From assembly GCA_043808095.1 (NCBI GenBank), contig JAZDFF010000031.1:37073-101072 (forward strand): a stretch of 64,000 nucleotides of DNA, in the 5' to 3' direction. How positions within the stretch are numbered: the stretch's first letter is position 1; each line of letters opens with the position of its first letter. Below are positions 29,169 to 39,388 of this stretch, piece by piece. Below the pieces are notes generated by a model, which saw only the letters and a program-made list of their open reading frames with translations, ran no database searches and was not told the DNA's origin. Both the position numbers and the translations under genes were made by a program. The stretch comes from Candidatus Omnitrophota bacterium. GTDB lineage: Bacteria; Omnitrophota; Gorgyraeia; JAZDFF01.

Positions 29169-29441
29169 TTACCTATAAATTTCTCTTCTGTGGCCTAAGT
29201 CAATGATGTATATGATTAAGGTATTTTTATGGATAGTATAAATGATACGATAATCGCCTACGCGTAAAGAATAATCACCTGAAAGCTTACCTTGTAGGCG
29301 TTTTCCCTGATAAGGATCTGTTTTTAGAGTTTCTATGACGGTTATTAGGCGGGAATACAGTTTTTTATCTATTCTAAATATCTTTTCTAATGCTCCAGCC
29401 GCAAGCCGCGAAAATTCTATTTTAAACATCTGTTTTCTCAA
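29169..29441 (-). CDS. RelE/ParE-family type II toxin
   Basis: 90 aa. The C-terminal YRIIYTI...IIDLGHRREIY pattern is typical of RelE/ParE. Confidence 0.65.
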   Translation of the reverse strand: MRKQMFKIEFSRLAAGALEKIFRIDKKLYSRLITVIETLKTDPYQGKRLQGKLSGDYSLRVGDYRIIYTIHKNTLIIYIIDLGHRREIYR

Positions 29442-29709
29442 TTCTTGCGCGTAACTCTTCTAAAGAAACGGTTTTTCCGGCTTTAATTTCTTTCTTGGCC
29501 TGTTTTATCCTTCTTGCGGATTCTTTGTCCGAGAGGATCTCGATTGTTTCTAAAAATCCTTCATAATCATCGGGGCTTAGCATAATTGCGATCGGTTTTC
29601 CTCTTTTAGTAATAATATAGCGGTCTAGTTTGGTATCTATATTTCTTATTACCTTCGGTAATCCCGGGCGCAACGCCTTTAACGTAATGGCATTAACCAT
29701 TTTAACCAC
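29422..29709 (-). CDS. Phd/YefM-family antitoxin
   Basis: 95 aa. It overlaps the downstream toxin gene and has a Phd/YefM-like N-terminal fold signature. Confidence 0.6.
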   Translation of the reverse strand: MVKMVNAITLKALRPGLPKVIRNIDTKLDRYIITKRGKPIAIMLSPDDYEGFLETIEILSDKESARRIKQAKKEIKAGKTVSLEELRARIEKTDV

Positions 29710-29755: not shown

Positions 29756-30133
29756 TTAGATTATCTTTTCGACCTTTTCGAGTAAATCTTTTGACTCGAA
29801 GGGCTTGACGATATAGTCAGAGGCGCCGCTTTTTACAGCCTCTGTTGCCATTTCTACGCTTTTATAGCCGCTGACTACCGCGATTTTCTGATTTGGAGAA
29901 AGGCCCTTAATCTGTTTTAAGATATCCAGGCCGCTAATCTTGGGCATCTTGATATCAAGAAGGATAAGGTCAGGTTTTTGCCCCTTTTTGAGGCATTCCA
30001 GGCACTCCTGGCCGTCTGTAGCAAAGGAAAGGTCATAGTCCTTGCCTAAAATCAGCCTCAGCGACTCGCGGATGCCTTCTTCGTCATCGATGCAGTGGGA
30101 AATCTCACCAAACAGACCGATGCCAAAGCACAA
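29756..30133 (-). CDS. Response regulator receiver domain protein, possibly 5'-truncated at the junction with the Rhs gene
   Basis: The REC motifs (DDEE, LLDIKMP, SGY, KPF) are complete. The N-terminal few residues are encoded antisense to the Rhs coding sequence, and the only candidate start is a TTG. Confidence 0.55.
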   Translation of the reverse strand: MCFGIGLFGEISHCIDDEEGIRESLRLILGKDYDLSFATDGQECLECLKKGQKPDLILLDIKMPKISGLDILKQIKGLSPNQKIAVVSGYKSVEMATEAVKSGASDYIVKPFESKDLLEKVEKII

Positions 30134-33100
30134 GTTTTAAACTTTACCTATGACTCGCTCAATCGCTTAACTAGTAAATCCGCAGGCGACAAGACATCGG
30201 TTACTTATCAATACGACAGCGGCCCATACGGCATCGGCCGCTTGAGCAAAATCCCAGATACCTCAGGCCAGACCGAGTTTTTCTACGACAATTTAGGCCG
30301 CGAGATTAAATCTATCAAGACTGTGAGCGCAATTACTTATACTGTTGAGCGCACCTATGATGCCCTGGATAGGCTCACCAGCCTTAAATACCCTGATAAT
30401 AGCATGGTCTTCTACGAGTATAATCCTCAGGGCATCCAAAATGTCCATAGTTATTCATCCGACACTAACGGCCTTAAATTGTATTTGAATTGCAATGGCT
30501 CCGATGGTTCAAGAAATTTTATAGATGCAACCGGCAAAAACGTTAGTGTTTATGGCAATGCCCAAATAGATACTGATCAATACCAGTTTGGCGGTGCCTC
30601 TGGTTTGTTTGACGGCAATGGAGATTATCTCTCATTAGCAGATAGTGATGACTGGAGCTTTGGTTCAGAAGATTTTACAATAGATTTTTGGGTGAGATTT
30701 AATGCATTACCGTCGTCTGGGGATGGGGCGACAATTCTAAGTCAAAGAGAGTCGACTATTAGATGGTATGTGACATTGTGGAACAGAAGTGGAACTTATG
30801 AATGGCATTTCCAGACATCGGATGTTTCTAATAGTATTGTGGTGGTAAAGGCTACGACTGTAGCCATTGATACTTGGTATCATATAGCGGTTGTCCGCGA
30901 TGGCAATAATTTTATGATATTCCAAGACGGCGTTCAAGTAGGCACTACTGTAGCGAGTGCTGATTCTGTACCTGATGTAGCAGGACCATTAGATATAGGA
31001 ACTTTTAATAGAATAGACGCTAATTTGAATGGTTGGTTAGATGAGTTAAGAATTTCTAAAGGTATAGCCCGCTGGACATCCAATTTTACTCCACCAGATG
31101 AATCTGATTACTCCCAGTATAACTATGAAACCTTCATTGCCAACATCGACTATTCACCCACCGGCCAGATTACCAAGATTGTTTATGGAAATGGCACCGA
31201 AACCAACTATGCCTACAATCCCAATACGCTGCGGCTATCGCATCTGACTACGGGTTTATCCGGTCAGGCCGCCACTCTGCAAGACCTGCAATACCAATTC
31301 GACAATGTGGGCAATATCTCAAACATAGCCGACTCAATAAATACTGCCACCCAATCATTCAACTATGATGATTTGAATCGCCTCATTCAGGCGCAAGGCG
31401 CTTACGGCGCATTTAGTTATACTTATGATTCTATCGGCAATATGACTAATAAAGAAGGAGTGGCCTTAACTTATGGCAAGGCCGGGAAACTTCCTCATGC
31501 TGTTACTCAATACGGCTCGACGCTAATTGACTACGACGTTAACGGCAATATGGCCACTAAAGACAACCTGCAATATACCTATGATGCGGAAAACCGCCTG
31601 ACTGAAGTGGAAGACACAACCGCCACCCAGCCACAAACCCTGAATATCAGCCTGCAGCCGGGTTGGAATTTTGTTTCTTTTGCTGTTCTGCCCTCGATTA
31701 CCACGATTAGCTCAGTATTGGCCTCAATCGCCGGAAAATACGACCAGGTTTCTCGATACAATTCAACAACCAGATCCTTCGAGCATTATGTGGGTAATTC
31801 TAAATACGACCAGTTTTCTACCTTTGAATATGGCAAGGGTTATCAGATTTATGTCACTTCAGCAACAGGCGCGGCCCTGACTGTCACCGGAAATATCCCT
31901 TCTTCATTGGATATTTCGCTAAAATCCGGCTACAACCTGATTGCCTGTCCCCAAATGGCTGAGACACCGGTTGAAGAGGCGCTAAAACCTTTAAAATTAG
32001 GGGTTGATTATTCCAAGGTCCTGCATTATAATAAAAACTTAGCGCTCTTTGAAAAGTATGACGCAGAAAGCCACGAGTTCTCAAGCCTGAATCCGGGCGA
32101 GAGTTATTATCTCTATTGCCTGAAAAATACGAGCTGGGTGGCGCAGAATACCGCGCCGACGACAACTTTTGCTTATGACGGCGACGGCGGAAGGGTAAAG
32201 AAGACAGTCGGCTCAAATACCACCACCTACATCGGCTCGCTGTTTGAAAAAGACTCAAGCGGCAAGACTACTAAGTATATTTTCTCGGGAGCAAATCGGG
32301 TCTGCACAGTTGAATCAACCGGCGATAAATACTTCCATCATTCGGATCATCTGGGAAGCAGTAACGTCGTGAGCGACGACAACGGCCAGCAAATTGGCCT
32401 CACCGAATTCACTCCCTACGGCTCAGTTTCACAACAGGCCGGCACCTTTGACCCCAAACACAAGTTTACCGGAAAAGAACTCGACGCGAGTACGGGGTTG
32501 TATTTTTACGGCGCCCGCTACTACGACCCTACCATCGGGAGATTCATAACTGCCGATACGATTGTCCAGTCGCCCTACGATCCCCAAAGCCTGAATAGGT
32601 ATTCTTACTGTCGAAACAACCCTCTAAACTACACTGACCCGACTGGGCATAGTTGGAAGAAGTTTTGGAATAGCTTTGCTGGAGCGTTTGTAGCTGTTGC
32701 CCTTGCTTTTGTGCTTGGTCCTGCTGGGTTGTACTGGGTAGGTTCAACCATGGCCTGGGCAATCGGAGGGGCGGCAGGAGGAGCCCTCACAGGTGGACTT
32801 GAAGGCGGTTGGAAGGGTGCTTTAATAGGCGGGGCTCTAGGAGGTGCCCTAGGTGGTTTTGGCGCTTGGGGAGTAAGGGAATTTGGAGCTGGTTTTGGCT
32901 ATGGGATGTTAGCTGCCGGTGCAGGAGTGGCCGGCGCTACCGATAGCTGGGATAGCTTTGCAGGAGGAGTTGTCGGAGGAATTGCTGGAGCAGCAGTTGG
33001 GAATATTTGGAATGATTTTACTGGTGCACAGTCAGGAGTTAATAGAAATGATTTGGCTGCACAAACTGAACAATTAAAACAAGCCCAGCAAGCCCTTAAT

Positions 33101-33553
33101 ATAGAGCCGAATGAAACGATTAGAGTAGGCACAAGAGATGCAGTTTTAAATGCCGACCATCAATTAATACGAAGACAAAATGGTATGATTGTGGAGGCTG
33201 GTGCTGGTGAAGGTGGCAAGATGACAGTTTTCCAATATAATCCCCAAGATTATATTAATCCTGCTTCTCGTGTAAATCTAGCACCTACTCAAAAGCACAC
33301 CTTATCTGCTCTGTATGAAGGTAAACTACATTTACGATGGTCTAATCCTGTCCCTGTTAATTCAGCAAAACTAGATACTTTAATTAGCGGAGTTCAATCA
33401 ATATGGTCGGCTGCAAATTATGCTGCTGGAGCATTTAATAGTAACTATGCTATAAATACTTTTGTTTACGGTTCAGCGCCACTTGGAACAAAAATAACAG
33501 GTCTACATACATGGAGACCGAGTTTCTCGGGTAATTATGGGAAGGACCAATGA
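30095..33553 (+). CDS. Rhs/YD-repeat toxin, N-terminally truncated: YD repeats, LamG-like insert, RHS core ending DPTGH, glycine-zipper C-terminal toxin domain
   Basis: Repeated YD motifs (TYQYD, TYTYD, FAYDGDGGR), the core YFYGARYYDPTIGRFITADT...NYTDPTGH, then a unique 300-aa C-terminus. The ORF begins mid-repeat with a GTG. Confidence 0.8.
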   Translation: MGNLTKQTDAKAQVLNFTYDSLNRLTSKSAGDKTSVTYQYDSGPYGIGRLSKIPDTSGQTEFFYDNLGREIKSIKTVSAITYTVERTYDALDRLTSLKYPDNSMVFYEYNPQGIQNVHSYSSDTNGLKLYLNCNGSDGSRNFIDATGKNVSVYGNAQIDTDQYQFGGASGLFDGNGDYLSLADSDDWSFGSEDFTIDFWVRFNALPSSGDGATILSQRESTIRWYVTLWNRSGTYEWHFQTSDVSNSIVVVKATTVAIDTWYHIAVVRDGNNFMIFQDGVQVGTTVASADSVPDVAGPLDIGTFNRIDANLNGWLDELRISKGIARWTSNFTPPDESDYSQYNYETFIANIDYSPTGQITKIVYGNGTETNYAYNPNTLRLSHLTTGLSGQAATLQDLQYQFDNVGNISNIADSINTATQSFNYDDLNRLIQAQGAYGAFSYTYDSIGNMTNKEGVALTYGKAGKLPHAVTQYGSTLIDYDVNGNMATKDNLQYTYDAENRLTEVEDTTATQPQTLNISLQPGWNFVSFAVLPSITTISSVLASIAGKYDQVSRYNSTTRSFEHYVGNSKYDQFSTFEYGKGYQIYVTSATGAALTVTGNIPSSLDISLKSGYNLIACPQMAETPVEEALKPLKLGVDYSKVLHYNKNLALFEKYDAESHEFSSLNPGESYYLYCLKNTSWVAQNTAPTTTFAYDGDGGRVKKTVGSNTTTYIGSLFEKDSSGKTTKYIFSGANRVCTVESTGDKYFHHSDHLGSSNVVSDDNGQQIGLTEFTPYGSVSQQAGTFDPKHKFTGKELDASTGLYFYGARYYDPTIGRFITADTIVQSPYDPQSLNRYSYCRNNPLNYTDPTGHSWKKFWNSFAGAFVAVALAFVLGPAGLYWVGSTMAWAIGGAAGGALTGGLEGGWKGALIGGALGGALGGFGAWGVREFGAGFGYGMLAAGAGVAGATDSWDSFAGGVVGGIAGAAVGNIWNDFTGAQSGVNRNDLAAQTEQLKQAQQALNIEPNETIRVGTRDAVLNADHQLIRRQNGMIVEAGAGEGGKMTVFQYNPQDYINPASRVNLAPTQKHTLSALYEGKLHLRWSNPVPVNSAKLDTLISGVQSIWSAANYAAGAFNSNYAINTFVYGSAPLGTKITGLHTWRPSFSGNYGKDQ

Positions 33554-34482
33554 TAAAAAAATATTATATAATCGGTATTATAATATTAGTTTTTTTTACA
33601 GCAAAAGGCTTTGCAATAGAAGAGGTTAATATGTATCACGAATTGAAAAAAATTGATAAGTCTGGTATTTGGAAAAATATTTGGTGCGATGGGTATGAAA
33701 TACATCTATGTAACTTGCCTTTCTATAAAAGAGGAACAAAGTTATTTGAAGTAGAAAACCGTAAATTTATGCTTATAGGAAATCGTGAATTATCGCCTGA
33801 TGCAAAGAAAATAGCATTTACACTTGAGACTTATAAGCATAGAGCTTATCAGAATATTATTCGTACAGATCTCTATATAATGAATAGCGATGGAACAAAC
33901 CTTACGAAATTACCAACCGATGTATTTGAAAATATCTTTCTAATCGGTTTTTTAGGAGACGGCAAGCTTGTATTGGAACATTCCGAAGTAGAAAATTACC
34001 TTCATAAACCAGAAACTCGGGTAATCTATACCATAGACCTAAATACAAATAAAATTAATAAATTTGCTAATCAAAAAATTTCAATTAGTAGTCTCAATGC
34101 TTCTGCGAAAGGTGATTTATTAATATGCCCAGAACAGAATATGACTATTGTTTATGATGTTGAAAATAATGCAACCAAAAAAATGAATATAAAAATGGAT
34201 GCGCCTGTTCTGTCACCGGATGGTAAAAAAATTCTTTTCAGACGCGGCGATATGATGGGAAGTTATTACATTGTTAATATTGACGGAACTAATGAAGAAT
34301 TGTTGCTGTCAGATGAGAAGATTCGATATTTACTCAAAGGTTCTGGAGATTATAGAGATTTAGTCTATGCGAGTTGGTCTCCCGATTCAAGATTCCTCTT
34401 GTTTACTGAATCTTCGGACCTACAAAAAGGTAAGTCGTTTGTATTAGATATTGGCTCTAAAGAGATAGTTAAGATAAGGTAA
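33550..34482 (+). CDS. Putative Rhs immunity protein: secreted/anchored TolB/PD40-like beta-propeller protein
   Basis: Start overlaps the Rhs stop (ATGA). There is an N-terminal hydrophobic segment and PD40-like segments (DGTNLTKLPTD, SPDGKKILF, WSPDSRFLLF). Confidence 0.4.
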   Translation: MIKKYYIIGIIILVFFTAKGFAIEEVNMYHELKKIDKSGIWKNIWCDGYEIHLCNLPFYKRGTKLFEVENRKFMLIGNRELSPDAKKIAFTLETYKHRAYQNIIRTDLYIMNSDGTNLTKLPTDVFENIFLIGFLGDGKLVLEHSEVENYLHKPETRVIYTIDLNTNKINKFANQKISISSLNASAKGDLLICPEQNMTIVYDVENNATKKMNIKMDAPVLSPDGKKILFRRGDMMGSYYIVNIDGTNEELLLSDEKIRYLLKGSGDYRDLVYASWSPDSRFLLFTESSDLQKGKSFVLDIGSKEIVKIR

Positions 34483-34616
34483 TTTACAAGGCGAATTCCG
34501 GGGAATTCCGGGGACACACACGTAATTCACGGATTATTTGAATTTCATAAAATTACTAGACGCTTTATTTAAACACTTGGAAAATAAGGACAGCGACTAT
34601 TTATTTTTATATCTAA

Positions 34617-35981
34617 GCAAGTTCGCTCTTTGAAAAAGACTCAAGCGGCAAGAGCACCAAATACATTTTTTCAGGCGCAAACCGGGTCTGCACAGTTGAA
34701 TCAACGGGCAATAAGTATTTTCACCACTCAGACCATTTAGGCTCAAGCAATGTCGTTAGCGATGCCAATGGCGCTCAAGTCGGCCTGACTGAATTCACTC
34801 CCTACGGTTCAGTCTCAAAACAAACCGGCACCTTTGACCCCAAACACAAGTTCACCGGCAAAGAACTCGACGCGAGTACGGGGTTGTATTTCTACGGCGC
34901 CCGCTACTACGACCCTACCATCGGGAGATTCATTACTCCTGATTCAATAGTTCAAGCTCCAAGCGACCCACAGTCACTAAACCGATATTCTCAATCCCGG
35001 AACAACCCAATCACCTATATTGATCCCAATGGTCGATGGTTCTGGGCTGCTATAATTATTGGTGCTATTTTAGGGGGAGGTTCAGCAGCGGCAAATCACC
35101 AGCCTATATGGCAAGGTGTGCTTATGGGAGCTTTAGGGGGTTTGATGATTGGTGGAGGAGCAGCTGCTTTTGGTTTTTGGGGAGCAGTAGGAGGTGGAAT
35201 GATTGCCGGTGCATCTAATTCTGCTGTGTTTGGAGGCAATATTGGATTTGGTGCTCTTATTGGCGGTCTGGGAGCTGGCATAGGTTATGGTTTAGGTTCA
35301 TGGGCAAGTGGATGGAATGAGGGTAGTTTTTGGGGACAATTAGGTGCAGCAGTAACTGCAGGCAGCGTCGCAGGCGGAGTAGGAGCAGAACTTCAAGGTG
35401 GTAAATTCGGCCAAGGCGCGGGGATGGGAGCAGCATATGGGGCTGCTGGATTTTTTGGATCAAAAGCAGGCAATTGTCTTGACCCACGTATTCGTCAGGC
35501 ACAAAAATATGAACAAGAAGTTAGAAAAATGCACGCTCTTAATAGCAAAAATAACGACATGATAAAGATTGATGTTGGTGCGAGACCGGCGGTAGGTCCT
35601 GCAGATCATCGTTTTTTATTGAAATGGGAGATGGGTTCAAGATATCCAGGAAGTGGCCCTATAGAAACTACAAATACTATGGGCGATCTATCAAATTGGC
35701 CAACCTATAGGCATACTCAAAGTGCTATCAAATCGGGAATGGCACACTATGCTACCGCTGAAGTCAGCGCATCAGGTTTAGTTGATGCAATAGCCCTTTA
35801 CGAGCAGTATTGGGTTAATACGAATACAATTTATAGTGGTGGGAGTTATAATAGTAACTATGCCATAAATACTGTAATCTATAGTGCAGGTGGAACTGTG
35901 CCAGGAGGATTGGGCTTGACCCCCGCTTTTGGTACTGTACCCGCTTCCGCATTCTATCCCTATATACCTAAAGAACGATGA
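34617..35981 (+). CDS. Orphan Rhs C-terminal cassette (displaced rhs-CT): copy of the Rhs core end plus a divergent glycine-zipper CT domain; lacks an N-terminus
   Basis: Nucleotide identity to 32240-32560 is high. The translation LFEKDSSGKS...YFYGARYYDPTIGRFITPDS...DPNGR is followed by a different CT, whose C-terminal motif NSNYAINT is shared with the main CT. Confidence 0.65.
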   Translation, partial: ASSLFEKDSSGKSTKYIFSGANRVCTVESTGNKYFHHSDHLGSSNVVSDANGAQVGLTEFTPYGSVSKQTGTFDPKHKFTGKELDASTGLYFYGARYYDPTIGRFITPDSIVQAPSDPQSLNRYSQSRNNPITYIDPNGRWFWAAIIIGAILGGGSAAANHQPIWQGVLMGALGGLMIGGGAAAFGFWGAVGGGMIAGASNSAVFGGNIGFGALIGGLGAGIGYGLGSWASGWNEGSFWGQLGAAVTAGSVAGGVGAELQGGKFGQGAGMGAAYGAAGFFGSKAGNCLDPRIRQAQKYEQEVRKMHALNSKNNDMIKIDVGARPAVGPADHRFLLKWEMGSRYPGSGPIETTNTMGDLSNWPTYRHTQSAIKSGMAHYATAEVSASGLVDAIALYEQYWVNTNTIYSGGSYNSNYAINTVIYSAGGTVPGGLGLTPAFGTVPASAFYPYIPKER

Positions 35982-36385
35982 GCAAAATGAAGCAAAGTAT
36001 TATAGTACTCTCTATAGTATTAATTACAATTTATTTGTTAAATAATAATAGAGGAATCGCTATGGAGGATAAACTAGATCACAAGACTGTCATTAAAGAA
36101 GAATTAAAACAGATAGAGATTTCCGATGGAGTTAGTAAAAAGGAGGCAATTATTATTGCTCAGAATGAATTAATTAAAGATGGACTTGAAAAAGAGTATT
36201 ACATTTCTAAGCCAATAATAACGGAAAGTAAGTTGGTAGACGGGTGTTGGTTTGTTAGGTTTAACATGAAATTTAAATTCGGATATATATTGGAAAAAAT
36301 ATTATTTCTTGGAAGATGGTGCGGATACCATATTGAAAAGAAATCAGGCGAAATAAAAATGAAAGATTGGGGTCCTGACTTATAA
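35978..36385 (+). CDS. Small secreted/membrane-anchored protein, candidate immunity protein for the orphan CT
   Basis: ATGA overlap with the orphan CT. It has an N-terminal signal/TM segment and is paralogous to 37344..37712. Confidence 0.35.
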   Translation: MSKMKQSIIVLSIVLITIYLLNNNRGIAMEDKLDHKTVIKEELKQIEISDGVSKKEAIIIAQNELIKDGLEKEYYISKPIITESKLVDGCWFVRFNMKFKFGYILEKILFLGRWCGYHIEKKSGEIKMKDWGPDL

Positions 36386-36568
36386 ATAAAAAATCATAGA
36401 TATCTTTGTTCTCAAATGCAATTTAAGAAATAGGAGTTCTTATACCAATTTTTATATAGACTTATAAAGAGGCATTTATGAAAAGAGCACTTCTAGTCAG
36501 CATAAGCAATAATGGTGTCAGAACTCAATAACCCTTTTAATATATAAAATTGTCGTGTAAAAATTCCG

Positions 36569-37263
36569 GGGACACGTACCTTTTATTTAACAAATAATAT
36601 CAGATGACGTAGAAACATCCATGAGTCCACGAATGGCAAGAATTGTTTTTTCTAATATGCCTCATCACATAGTTCAGCGAGGTAATAGAAGGCAGGATGT
36701 ATTTTTTGAAGATGAAGACCGCGAGATTTATTTACGTTTATTAAAAGAACAGATACAAAAGTATGAAGTCCAAGTATGGGCGTATTGTCTTATGAGTAAC
36801 CACGTACATTTAATCGTTGTTCCCGCCAATAAAGATTCTTTAGCGAAAGCCATAGGAGAAACCCATAAAAGATATACCAGAATGATCAATTTCCGAGAAG
36901 GATGGCGTGGATATCTTTGGGAGGGTAGATTTAAGAGTTTTCTCTTGGATGAAAAGTATGTCTATGCCGCTGTTCGTTACGTTGAGAGAAATCCGGCAAG
37001 AGTTAAGATTGTAAAAAGAGCGGAAGATTACCCTTGGTCAAGTGCCAAGGCCCATATTAAACGTCTAAATGGAACCGTCTTAAGTGATTTCTATCTCTTA
37101 GATGAAATAGCAGATTGGTCAGATTATTTACGCCAGGAGGATAAAGAAGAAGACTTGAAGATATTTAGGCGTCATGGCAGTGTGGGTAAACCAATAGGGG
37201 ATGCTAAATTCATAAAACGGACTCGGATTAATCAGTTCAATTAGGTACGTGTCCCCGGAACTT
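36569..37263 (+). mobile_element. REP-associated tyrosine transposase (RAYT/IS200-like) unit with flanking inverted REP-like sequences TTCCGGGGACACGTACC
   Basis: ttccggggacacgtacc at 36569-36585 and its reverse complement ggtacgtgtccccggaa at 37247-37263 bracket the tnp ORF. A related gaattccggggaattccggggacacacacg lies at 34491-34522. Confidence 0.65.
36621..37244 (+). CDS. IS200/IS605-family Y1 (HUH) transposase, RAYT-like
   Basis: HUH motif SNHVHLIV, a downstream conserved Tyr region (YVERNPARVKIV...YPWSS), and a typical N-terminus MARIVFSNMPHHIVQRGNRRQDVFF. Confidence 0.75.
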   Translation: MSPRMARIVFSNMPHHIVQRGNRRQDVFFEDEDREIYLRLLKEQIQKYEVQVWAYCLMSNHVHLIVVPANKDSLAKAIGETHKRYTRMINFREGWRGYLWEGRFKSFLLDEKYVYAAVRYVERNPARVKIVKRAEDYPWSSAKAHIKRLNGTVLSDFYLLDEIADWSDYLRQEDKEEDLKIFRRHGSVGKPIGDAKFIKRTRINQFN

Positions 37264-37343: not shown

Positions 37344-37712
37344 ATGATAATACTTATAAACAAATTTATTATACTGAGTTTGGTTATACTACTTATATTT
37401 CTGAAGCCTAAAATTGGAGGCGCTATGGCTGAAAGACCGATTCAAGATGAAATGCAAATAAAGGTTGATTTGTCAGATGGCGTTAATAAAGAAGAGGCGA
37501 TAATTCTTGCAAAGAACTACTTAATACATAAAGGGCTAGAGAAAAATGTAATCATTTTTAAGGCCAAAGTTAGAGAAAGTCGGTTATTTAAAGAATGTTG
37601 GACTGTTTACTTTCCTCCATCTCCTAATATTCGGGCAAGAATACCATTTGATTTTGTGGTAGACGTAGATAAAAAAACCGGTGAAATAAAACTAGCTGGT
37701 TGGAATAAATAG
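37344..37712 (+). CDS. Small secreted protein, paralog of 35978..36385
   Basis: Shared segments DGV.K.EAII.A.N.LI.KGLEK and KK.GEIK...W. A signal/TM segment is present at the N-terminus. Confidence 0.35.
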   Translation: MIILINKFIILSLVILLIFLKPKIGGAMAERPIQDEMQIKVDLSDGVNKEEAIILAKNYLIHKGLEKNVIIFKAKVRESRLFKECWTVYFPPSPNIRARIPFDFVVDVDKKTGEIKLAGWNK

Positions 37713-37978: not shown

Positions 37979-38383
37979 ATGAAGAAAAATTATTTATTAT
38001 TGTTTAGTATTTTATTACTATTTGGTTGTTCAACAGCCGGCTCTCACCTTAAATCGGTTCAGTCTGACGTAGCTGACAGGGTAACTGTAGGAAAAGTCCA
38101 ACGCGAGATTCGTATTGGTATGTCATCTGCTCAAGTGGCTGAAGTATTAGGCTCTCCTAATATTGTTAGCACTGACGAAAATCGGAGAGAGGTATGGATT
38201 TATGATAAGATTGCTACGGATGTTTCTTATTCAAATAATGAAGGCGGGGCTACTTTGCTACTATTAGGCATTACTGGTTCTTCGGGTGCAGTATCGAAAT
38301 CTCAAAGGACTTTAACAGTTATTATTAAGTTTGATGAAAACAGCAAAGTCCGAGATTTTGCTTATCATACATCTAGCTTTTAG
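37979..38383 (+). CDS. Lipoprotein, BamE/SmpA-OmlA-like
   Basis: Lipobox LLFGC. GMSSAQVAEVLGSPN...EVWIY resembles the SmpA_OmlA fold. Confidence 0.4.
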   Translation: MKKNYLLLFSILLLFGCSTAGSHLKSVQSDVADRVTVGKVQREIRIGMSSAQVAEVLGSPNIVSTDENRREVWIYDKIATDVSYSNNEGGATLLLLGITGSSGAVSKSQRTLTVIIKFDENSKVRDFAYHTSSF

Positions 38384-38404
38384 GACGAAAATAAAACAGA
38401 CAAA

Positions 38405-38957
38405 AATGCGAAGCTTTCCAAAATTATTCTTATGTTTATTTTTGAGTTTGGGACTAATTAGCTGTGTCAGTATTCCTACAGGTTTTCTAAAGCTTAACGA
38501 AGGCTATTTAGAAAAAAGGCAATTGCAAATAAGGCAATACGACACAACTAATGAAGAACAGATTATAACGGCTGTCGCTGGAGTTTTACAAGATTTAGGT
38601 TTTACTTTGGATGATAGCGAAACCAAATTAGGGTTGGTATCTGCTTCTAAAAAAGCTGATGCAATAAGTGCAGGTCAAGTTACCGGCGCAATCTTCCTTG
38701 ACATGTTATCCGCTTTAGGTGGTAATTATTCTAATAACGCCGCAAGGTGTGATAAATCTCAGGTAGTTAAAGCCTCGGTAATTACGAAACTAAGCCTTGA
38801 AGGAAATAAGATGGTTGTTCGAGTTACATTTCAGCGAATTGTTTGGAACATGAGTAATCAAATCAACAGAGTAGAAACTATTAATGATCCGGAAATATAT
38901 CAGAAGTTTTATGATAGTTTATCAAAAGCGATATTTTTGGAGGCTCAGAAAATATGA
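38405..38957 (+). CDS. Lipoprotein of unknown function (paralog pair member 1)
   Basis: Lipobox LISC. It is homologous to 38954..39388 (DTT...Q.V...LQDL.F..D......GS..SK ... DPE.YQ.F...L.KAIFL.AQ). Confidence 0.4.
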
Positions 38958-39388
38958 GAAAATTAACAAGATATTGCGGTATTCTTATGATTTTATTTTT
39001 GAGTGTTGTATTGTCTGGGTGTGCAACTACCGCTGGAAAGGCTTTTGAGACCAAAGAAAGTCAGGTTAAATTAAGAAGTATCCAGACAAGAGCTTTTGAT
39101 ACAACCGATAAGAAGAAAATGATGCAAACTGTAATAAGCACGCTACAAGACTTAGATTTTGTTGTTGATAAAGCCGATTTTATGCTCGGTTCCATTACCG
39201 GTTCTAAATTTCTTGGGCACGAGGTTGTGACAATGACGGTTATTGTTAGACCACGGGGAGAAAAACAGTTGTTAGTAAGGGCAAACGCCCAATATGGGAT
39301 TAAGACAGTAGAAGATCCAGAAACCTATCAAGATTTCTTTACTGCTTTAGAAAAGGCAATATTTTTAACAGCGCAGCAGGTTGATTAA
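38954..39388 (+). CDS. Lipoprotein of unknown function (paralog pair member 2)
   Basis: Lipobox LSGC. The two genes form a tandem duplicate and overlap by 4 nt. Confidence 0.4.
   Translation: MRKLTRYCGILMILFLSVVLSGCATTAGKAFETKESQVKLRSIQTRAFDTTDKKKMMQTVISTLQDLDFVVDKADFMLGSITGSKFLGHEVVTMTVIVRPRGEKQLLVRANAQYGIKTVEDPETYQDFFTALEKAIFLTAQQVD

Follow-up and report, generated by a model that had tools for sequence, protein, structure and literature searches.

Candidate membrane-tethered papain-like toxin domain of a decayed Rhs gene and its probable immunity partner, an exported beta-propeller, in an Omnitrophota bacterium

The closest functional analogue of the system described in this work is the Tse1/Tsi1 (Tae1/Tai1) pair of Pseudomonas aeruginosa, in which a periplasmic papain-like toxin is paired with an exported immunity protein made of propeller sheets. 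Tse1 is a canonical Cys-His enzyme of the NlpC/P60 type and travels as free cargo of a type VI secretion system (T6SS), unlike the toxin considered here, which is the C-terminal toxin domain (CT) of an Rhs protein. In Rhs/TcC proteins a shell encloses the CT, and self-cleavage at the core frees it. Tsi1 consists of propeller-type beta-sheets, has its nearest structural relatives in DPP-IV propellers and inhibits the papain-like amidase Tse1 (PMC3391265). The closest structural relatives of the toxin domain reported here are the PPPDE/DeSI enzymes and TseH. The locus lies in a stretch of 64,000 nucleotides (nt), hereafter the window, from a Candidatus Omnitrophota bacterium (GenBank assembly GCA_043808095.1, contig JAZDFF010000031.1, positions 37,073 to 101,072), and comprises a 5'-truncated Rhs/TcC-type polymorphic toxin gene (30095-33553), the gene that follows it (33550-34482) and an array of orphan modules further downstream; unless otherwise indicated, all features are on the forward (+) strand. 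With a probability of roughly 0.6, we interpret this locus as the remnant of an Rhs toxin whose CT is a membrane-tethered papain-like enzyme and whose neighbour, an exported beta-propeller, is the inhibitor of that enzyme.

The CT of the window Rhs protein (CT1) spans 32651-33550 and comprises 300 amino acids (aa); the start at 32652 given in an earlier note, which had been made from the sequence without database searches, was one base out of frame. CT1 matched no curated family of Pfam or NCBIfam, which agrees with the description of an uncharacterised toxin domain in that note. The note had also found no motif in the region after the Gly-rich stretch of the CT, whereas profile searches and an AlphaFold2 (AF2) model revealed in this region a conserved, enzyme-like globular domain of 173 aa (aa 980-1152 of the open reading frame, ORF; 33032-33550). 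A word-indexed homologue search with the CT returned 3 proteins only. An exhaustive profile search of 1.84 billion representatives gave 80 matches at E<=1e-3, about 77 of which were judged real, and nearly all of these cluster representatives carry the domain at the extreme C-terminus of Rhs-type proteins. In a scan of species-representative genomes the domain was located at 14 loci, 12 of them in Omnitrophota, one in Planctomycetia and one in Elusimicrobia.

As judged from a 52-sequence alignment of the CT domain, His43 (H1022 in the Rhs ORF) and Asn138 (N1117) are invariant, and Arg35 (R1014), Glu55 (E1034), Gly57 (G1036), Thr90 (T1069) and Tyr130 (Y1109) are conserved in at least 90% of the sequences, as are Asn136 (N1115) and Ser137 (S1116), which are part of an N-S-N motif. 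The corresponding codons are at 33158-33160 (H1022), 33194-33196 (E1034) and 33437-33445 (N1115-S1116-N1117). Patterns of ADP-ribosyltransferases, deaminases and nucleases were considered for the conserved R, H, E and S residues and rejected, because neither the residue order nor the fold agrees with them. The AF2 model of the globular domain reached a predicted local distance difference test score (pLDDT) of 94.1 and a predicted template modelling score of 0.90; a model made with 5 sequences as input (pLDDT 45) was discarded. In the retained model the His is on strand 2, the Glu on strand 3 and Ser137 at the start of the last helix, which is the order of a circularly permuted papain-like fold, where an early strand bears the His and the nucleophile heads a late helix. 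The PPPDE profile (PF05903) matched 6 of the 52 members weakly, over the region that holds the catalytic Cys motif N-C-N-H-F, the best relative scoring 18.6 bits against a gathering threshold of 29.2 and the window CT giving no match, and the best BFVD match of the CT domain was a viral LRAT protein. These two independent lines agree on a permuted papain-like fold. Foldseek and sequence-profile searches of the PDB with the domain were negative, the sole profile match being an S-layer protein at chance level (E 0.25). We conclude that the CT domain is a new family of permuted papain-like proteins in whose nucleophile position a Ser is found. The proposed active site would be composed of His1022, oriented by Glu1034, and of Ser1116, the N-S-N serine with which the C-terminal helix begins.

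The comparison with described enzymes of this clan reveals both shared and distinct characters. In PPPDE enzymes the motif order H...N-C-N-H-F matches that of the CT domain. PPPDE/DeSI proteins (Peptidase_C97, PF05903) are eukaryotic and viral deSUMOylases and deubiquitinases with a catalytic Cys, whereas the nucleophile position of the CT family holds Ser in at least 90% of the members, Glu or Asp in a stand-alone subgroup and never the Cys of the N-C-N-H-F motif; with its sub-threshold matches the domain is not a C97 peptidase as curated. The LRAT/PLAAT (H-RAS-like suppressor) phospholipase-acyltransferases and the C92 amidases YaeF/YiiX differ by a Cys nucleophile and a His-His arrangement, and neither group matched the CT domain at the sequence level. 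The transmembrane (TM) anchor of LRAT/PLAAT proteins is C-terminal, whereas the hydrophobic segment of the CT precedes the enzyme domain. TseH, a T6SS effector of V. cholerae (PDB 6v98), has the triad His64-Glu81-Cys172 (PMC11160734), and its His-Glu-nucleophile order equals the His-Glu-Ser order of the CT domain; TseH has, on the other hand, a Cys nucleophile, T6SS delivery and no Gly-zipper linker, and shares 8% identity over the aligned residues. The membrane enzymes Lnb/LnsA are related to TseH and were grouped with it as a comparison. Papain-like families with serine in place of cysteine are known, although rare and poorly understood (PMC10318531).

Homologues of the domain also occur as stand-alone proteins (L007 1722-2702; L024 2076-3044 and 3066-3416; P0041, P0048, P0050, P0057 and P0064). 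These have a Sec signal or a lipobox, and some are extended at the N-terminus by a further domain of ~175 aa. His and Glu are retained in them, with N-E-N or N-D-N where the Rhs-borne forms have Ser. Two of them are encoded directly after a CT1-like/propeller pair, and in L024 the gene next to one of them encodes, on its 3' side, a lipoprotein that belongs to the small immunity family described below. A metagenome protein of 291 aa (P0042) resembles that small family in its N-terminal half (…RIPFGFSLDIDIQSGAVKY…) and consists of the CT enzyme domain in its C-terminal half; most likely an immunity gene and the next orphan CT were merged in gene calling, the alternative being a real fusion.

The gene next to CT1 (33550-34482) encodes an exported PD40-type beta-propeller of 310 aa with a Sec-type N-terminal signal segment (MIKKYYIIGIIILVFFTAKGFA), and is the candidate immunity gene of CT1. 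Its start overlaps the stop of the Rhs ORF by 4 nt (ATGA), so that the two genes are translationally coupled. The earlier note had read this overlap, the signal segment and the PD40/TolB-like repeats correctly: PD40 (PF07676) scored 29.6 bits against the Pfam cut-off of 20.9, and DPPIV_N and TolB-propeller families of Pfam and NCBIfam matched weakly. An assignment as TolB itself was rejected, given the score with TIGR02800 (28 bits against a cut-off of 343), the missing N-terminal TolB domain and the wrong genomic context. With a profile of the propeller subfamily only generic propellers were found in the PDB (PQQ, TolB, DPP-IV and tricorn; E 0.009-0.5). The propeller belongs to a tight subfamily at 35-70% identity, versus at most 28% for generic TolB/PD40 proteins. 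An exact look-up of the window propeller returned no recorded gene, but a protein identical to it is present in the protein database as a hypothetical protein (P0082). In contrast to Tsi1, a partial propeller of three sheets, the window protein is full-size, with ~285 mature residues and PD40 repeats; Pfam and NCBIfam gave no match to Tae or Tai families, nor did the PDB profile search return Tsi1.

The pairing of this propeller with CT1-type domains was consistent. In 11 of 11 independent loci, which cover all reachable members of the subfamily (the window, L001, L003/4, L005, L006, L007, L008/9, L023, L024/25, L026-28 and L029), a propeller gene with a partner identity of 32-70% lies directly 3' of an ORF ending in a CT1-clade domain, often with overlapping stop and start codons at the junction. 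In a tree of the CT domain, all CTs linked to a propeller fall into a single clade (8 of the 8 whose downstream gene is visible), and in the other clades a small exported protein with the motif SDG(V/I)(N/S)KEEAIIIAQN is encoded next in 15 of 19 cases. The type of partner tracks the clade of the enzyme domain, not the type of linker, as one would expect if the partner were a cognate inhibitor that targets the enzyme domain. Judging from this linkage, the propeller is very probably the cognate immunity protein of CT1, which supports the proposal, made in the earlier note, of a coupled and exported partner. All the partners, including a divergent PD40 protein in L005, have N-terminal export signals; therefore neutralisation and, by inference, the action of the toxin would take place outside the cytoplasm. 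Beta-propellers were not found among the immunity proteins of the polymorphic-toxin survey by Zhang et al. (2012), and no full-propeller immunity protein turned up in our literature searches. These results support the view, already expressed in the note, that a beta-propeller is an unusual fold for an immunity protein, with the partial propeller of Tsi1 as a precedent.

A very divergent orphan CT of this family was also observed in L005 (3839-4888; E 1e-16, motif E-N-S-N-F), as a deep outlier in the CT tree. The gene after it encodes a different PD40 propeller with a signal peptide (363 aa), 25% identical to that of the window (pair at L005 3839-5921). Propeller-type partners may be older than the CT1 clade.

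Between the release site and the enzyme domain, CT1 has a linker (32651-33031) which begins with a hydrophobic helix (Kyte-Doolittle 2.13) and continues as a Gly/Ala-rich "glycine-zipper" stretch; the first 125 aa of the CT contain 28% Gly and 20% Ala, with 25 small-xxx-small-xxx-small motifs, in line with the Gly-rich hydrophobic stretch and the CT length of about 300 aa that the earlier note had reported. Such a composition invites an alternative explanation, namely that this segment is a pore former or ionophore which oligomerises and depolarises the target membrane, with the globular domain as a mere receptor-binding or folding module, in the manner of EsxX, CdzC/D, Tse4/Ssp6 or the ionophoric CdiA-CTs. 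Glycine-zipper toxins and permeabilisation are documented in the literature, most members of the family have a linker of this sort, and relatives of CT1 match the Gly-zipper_OmpA/YMGG families of Pfam weakly. Nevertheless, we consider this explanation unlikely. Conservation does not reside in the linker: one type of globular domain is combined with at least three types of linker, among them a plain TM helix followed by a Ser/Pro-rich stretch with little Gly (L015 and L020), stand-alone homologues have no zipper at all, and the CT1-type zipper precedes enzyme domains of several clades, including those that use the other partner family. What is conserved is a globular domain with an enzyme fold, in which His and Asn never vary and Arg, Glu and Ser hardly do, and the type of partner follows the clade of this domain and not the zipper. 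The partners, moreover, are soluble exported proteins with an N-terminal signal only, unlike the polytopic membrane immunity proteins usual for pore formers. A zipper is thus present in CT1, but as an exchangeable element, and not as a conserved toxic element paired with a membrane-embedded immunity protein; this also distinguishes it from EsxX, CdzC/D and the N-terminus of Tde1, antibacterial toxins that share GxxxG-type runs in a hydrophobic segment. We therefore propose the linker as a membrane tether rather than as a toxic element, because the hydrophobic segment is joined to a predicted catalytic domain, sometimes through a Ser/Pro-rich spacer. The membrane-acting CT of the earlier note may thus persist in the form of a membrane-tethered enzyme; the zipper is probably not the toxic principle, since the conserved unit is the globular domain, and a pore is not indicated.

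The carrier of CT1 is, on the evidence of its domains, an ordinary Rhs/TcC-type protein. The ORF (30095-33553) starts with GTG and encodes 1152 aa, and the YD repeats, RHS core, DPTGH motif and LamG-like insert listed in the earlier note were all confirmed. The YD/RHS repeats of the shell were matched by RHS_repeat (PF05593, E 6.5e-20) and TIGR01643 (E 1.5e-9). A LamG/concanavalin-like domain (Laminin_G_3, PF13385, E 4.2e-19, aa 173-322; 30611-31060) is inserted in the shell; since it is found at the aligned site of the relative P0054 (44% identity) and also in the giant protein of L003, it characterises a whole protein lineage and is no peculiarity of the window gene. A second insert (aa 515-689; 31637-32161) consists of two related units (LQPGWNFVSF...GKGYQIYV and LKSGYNLIAC...ESYYLYC) and matched no family in the Pfam scan; an equivalent segment is shared by many relatives (P0015, P0019, P0030, P0039 and P0074). 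The Rhs-associated core (TIGR03696, E 7.2e-24, aa 772-852; 32408-32650) ends in DPTGH (aa 848-852, last base 32650), which by analogy would be the autoproteolytic release site of the CT, DPxG motifs of Rhs/TcC-type proteins having been described (PMC13018210). The YD shell, the DPxG core, the hypervariable CT, the downstream immunity gene and the orphan modules are shared with TcB-TcC cocoons, Rhs toxins and bacterial teneurin-like proteins, from which the window copy differs in the loss of its N-terminal half. No PAAR or VgrG domain was seen with Pfam or NCBIfam in the window ORF or its relatives.

This loss, already indicated by the word "truncated" in the earlier note, was confirmed by comparison with full-length relatives. 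These have 2100-2500 aa, signal-like N-termini and SpvB, FG-GAP, TcdB_mid and RHS domains, some also with Laminin_G_3 and PT-HINT, an architecture that corresponds to the TcdB/TcaC export type of Zhang et al. (2012). Residue 2 of the window protein aligns to residue 1287 of the 2460-aa P0054, with the LamG insert at the matching site, so that ~1285 residues are gone, including about half of the YD shell; neither the profile scan of the ORF (Pfam and NCBIfam) nor the alignment to P0054 revealed SpvB, TcdB_mid, FG-GAP or a signal peptide, that is, the N-terminal trafficking and secretion module of Rhs toxins is absent. Since the gene lacks the half responsible for export and shell formation, it is probably unable to deliver a toxin. 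The ORFs near the locus, which were the ones annotated in the window, include no genes for TcA, a T6SS or another delivery system. The Rhs homology (DAVGNL...) begins at about nt 30089, where a junction (atcgat, 30086-30091) joins it to the 5' end of a minus-strand receiver-domain gene (..IDDEEG) which is nearly complete (Response_reg profile positions 3-111, from ORF residue 14). This junction would be either the scar of a deletion or rearrangement, or an assembly join.

Downstream of the propeller gene lies an arrangement beyond those that the earlier note had described: a second, orphan core-tip and CT module with its own small partner gene (34621-36385). The orphan module proper (34621-35981) starts with a duplicated Rhs core tip of roughly 400 nt, ~83% identical at the nt level to 32236-32650, and the similarity collapses at the DPxG site. 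The CT that follows (CT2; hmmsearch E 8.5e-51) is 31% identical to CT1 in its C-terminal part (E 2e-14) and has the hydrolase family in common with it, while its Gly-zipper linker is different. The CT2 ORF overlaps by ATGA with a gene (35978-36385) for an exported protein of 135 aa with the motif SDGVSKKEAIIIAQN, which belongs to the partner family used by most non-CT1 clades and is the candidate immunity protein of CT2. A 122-aa paralogue of this protein (36% identity, E 2e-17) is encoded at 37344-37712 with no adjacent toxin and constitutes an orphan candidate immunity gene; an 89%-identical copy of it stands directly after a CT in L011. Between the CT2 module and this orphan gene is an IS200-like, REP-associated (repetitive extragenic palindromic) Y1 tyrosine transposase gene (36621-37244; PF01797, E 1.4e-15; NF047646, E 1.7e-16, below the curated cut-off), and in L001 a Y1 transposase likewise abuts a truncated CT. 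In gene order and sequence, a variable CT with its partner gene and orphan CT/immunity modules carrying a duplicated core tip constitute the classical layout of Rhs loci, in which a main gene is accompanied by orphan modules. In this genome it may have been kept as immunity and as a reservoir of CT modules.

These orphan genes also bear on the possibility that the propeller is an accessory factor, such as a periplasmic chaperone, an activator or a receptor/delivery partner, with protection coming from elsewhere or being unneeded. In favour of such a role, the parts of Tc/Rhs systems that serve delivery often contain beta-propellers, none were seen as immunity proteins in the 2012 survey, and a T6SS lipase that is activated by its own "immunity" protein has been reported. 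However, the gene has the position and coupling of an immunity gene: it lies directly 3' of the CT, the stop codon of one and the start codon of the other overlap, and in L001 and L003 the two move together as orphan modules that have no delivery part. The equivalent slot after the sister CT clades is occupied by the unrelated small exported protein, which fits co-evolving inhibitors better, and a toxin-less copy of this small partner exists in the window. Added to the precedent of Tsi1, a propeller-like fold which inhibits a papain-like toxin, these features make an accessory role quite improbable. Finally, a zipper that takes the enzyme through the cytoplasmic membrane, a role suggested for the N-terminus of Tde1, for action in the cytoplasm, for instance as an isopeptidase or deacylase on a cytosolic protein, would be in line with the described glycine-zipper-dependent translocation of a T6SS effector (PMC10240207) and with the cytosolic or nuclear isopeptidases PPPDE/DeSI as the closest relatives at the sequence level, but is very improbable given the export signals on both partner families and on the divergent L005 partner, and given that the stand-alone homologues are themselves Sec-signal proteins or lipoproteins.

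Therefore, we hypothesize that the locus is the 3' remnant of a Sec-exported Rhs toxin of the TcB/TcC type (SpvB-FG-GAP-TcdB_mid-YD shell). The shell of an intact relative would enclose the CT and free it by self-cleavage at DPTGH, after which the Gly/Ala-rich hydrophobic linker would insert into the membrane of the target cell or tether the CT to it. The toxic principle would be the 173-aa enzyme domain with its permuted papain-like fold, which may hydrolyse or transfer an amide or ester bond of an envelope component, such as a peptidoglycan peptide or the acyl chain of a lipid or lipoprotein, either within the periplasm or on the outer side of the cytoplasmic membrane. The propeller would bind and block the enzyme domain, as Tsi1 does with Tse1, and the sister clades of the domain, CT2 included, would be neutralised by the unrelated small exported protein. 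The analysis itself shows the identity of the domains, their fold and conservation, the export signals, the linkage of the genes and the truncation, whereas catalysis, substrate, site of action, neutralisation and toxicity are all read here from sequence and predicted structure. The mechanism is better described as that of an envelope-acting, membrane-tethered papain-like hydrolase than as that of a glycine-zipper pore former. For the wider proposal, of an undescribed and largely Omnitrophota toxin family with a Ser-His-Glu permuted papain-like site, a membrane tether and two unrelated exported immunity folds, one of them a complete PD40 propeller, we see about even odds.

Some points weigh against this interpretation. 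The secreted stand-alone homologues have Glu or Asp in place of Ser137, and the one of L024 is still followed by a small immunity-type gene; therefore, the Ser may not be an essential nucleophile. In addition, nearly all the examined loci of the CT1 clade with a propeller belong to a single phylum or lie on metagenome contigs without an assignment, so that part of the synteny could be due to shared ancestry and not to selection. Lastly, the truncation junction could be an artefact of the metagenome assembly.

Other features of the region were recorded. A tandem direct repeat (GAATTCCGGGG, two copies, 34493-34513) lies just past the propeller gene, and a related motif (AATTCCGGGGACAC, 36561-36575) ~50 nt upstream of the Y1 transposase gene. 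These sites may mark the boundaries of modules, as ends of elements or as REP-like sites; the number of motif matches (4, versus 1.35 expected) is not clearly above chance, 4 of 100 shuffles reaching 4. Between 32500 and 34500 the G+C content differs sharply, 0.54 over the Gly-rich CT linker versus 0.32-0.33 over the propeller gene, with a background of ~0.40 in the window; this contrast is in part an effect of Gly/Ala codons, to which a modular origin of the CT/immunity cassette may contribute. Immediately upstream of the truncated Rhs gene, the minus strand carries a type II toxin-antitoxin pair (29169-29709), which consists of a toxin of the ParE family (E 4.5e-14) and an antitoxin of the Phd/YefM type (E 1.6e-14) and is flanked by the receiver-domain gene and a HisKA_7TM histidine kinase gene. 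Histidine kinase and response regulator genes are also found by L006, but the gene order is not equal and a conserved neighbourhood was rejected. At 37979-39388, a BamE-like lipoprotein gene (PF04355, E 3.3e-6) precedes two overlapping ORFs of 208 and 144 aa. The N-termini of these ORFs resemble signals or lipoboxes, and their C-termini resemble each other (…DPEIYQKFYDSLSKAIFLEAQ and …DPETYQDFFTALEKAIFLTAQ); the two look like paralogues and matched no Pfam family. PADLOC reported nothing relevant at the locus, hence this is not a known anti-phage system.

What is new in this locus is the toxin domain family and the unusual immunity fold, while the delivery scaffold is known and present as a decayed copy. 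If our interpretation is true, the domain would add to the polymorphic-toxin repertoire a new enzymatic family, absent from Pfam and NCBIfam, and a further example of a serine-based papain-like enzyme; the propeller would be the first full-size beta-propeller immunity family, and the two partner types would exemplify, in nature, the complete exchange of the immunity protein inside a single toxin family. With sister clades that use unrelated immunity proteins, the family could show how toxin-immunity specificity gets rebuilt in evolution. For this genome a modest reading applies, that of a decayed toxin gene with retained immunity genes. For the Omnitrophota, an uncultivated phylum with suspected host-dependent or predatory lifestyles, the family would provide a first view of interbacterial weaponry.

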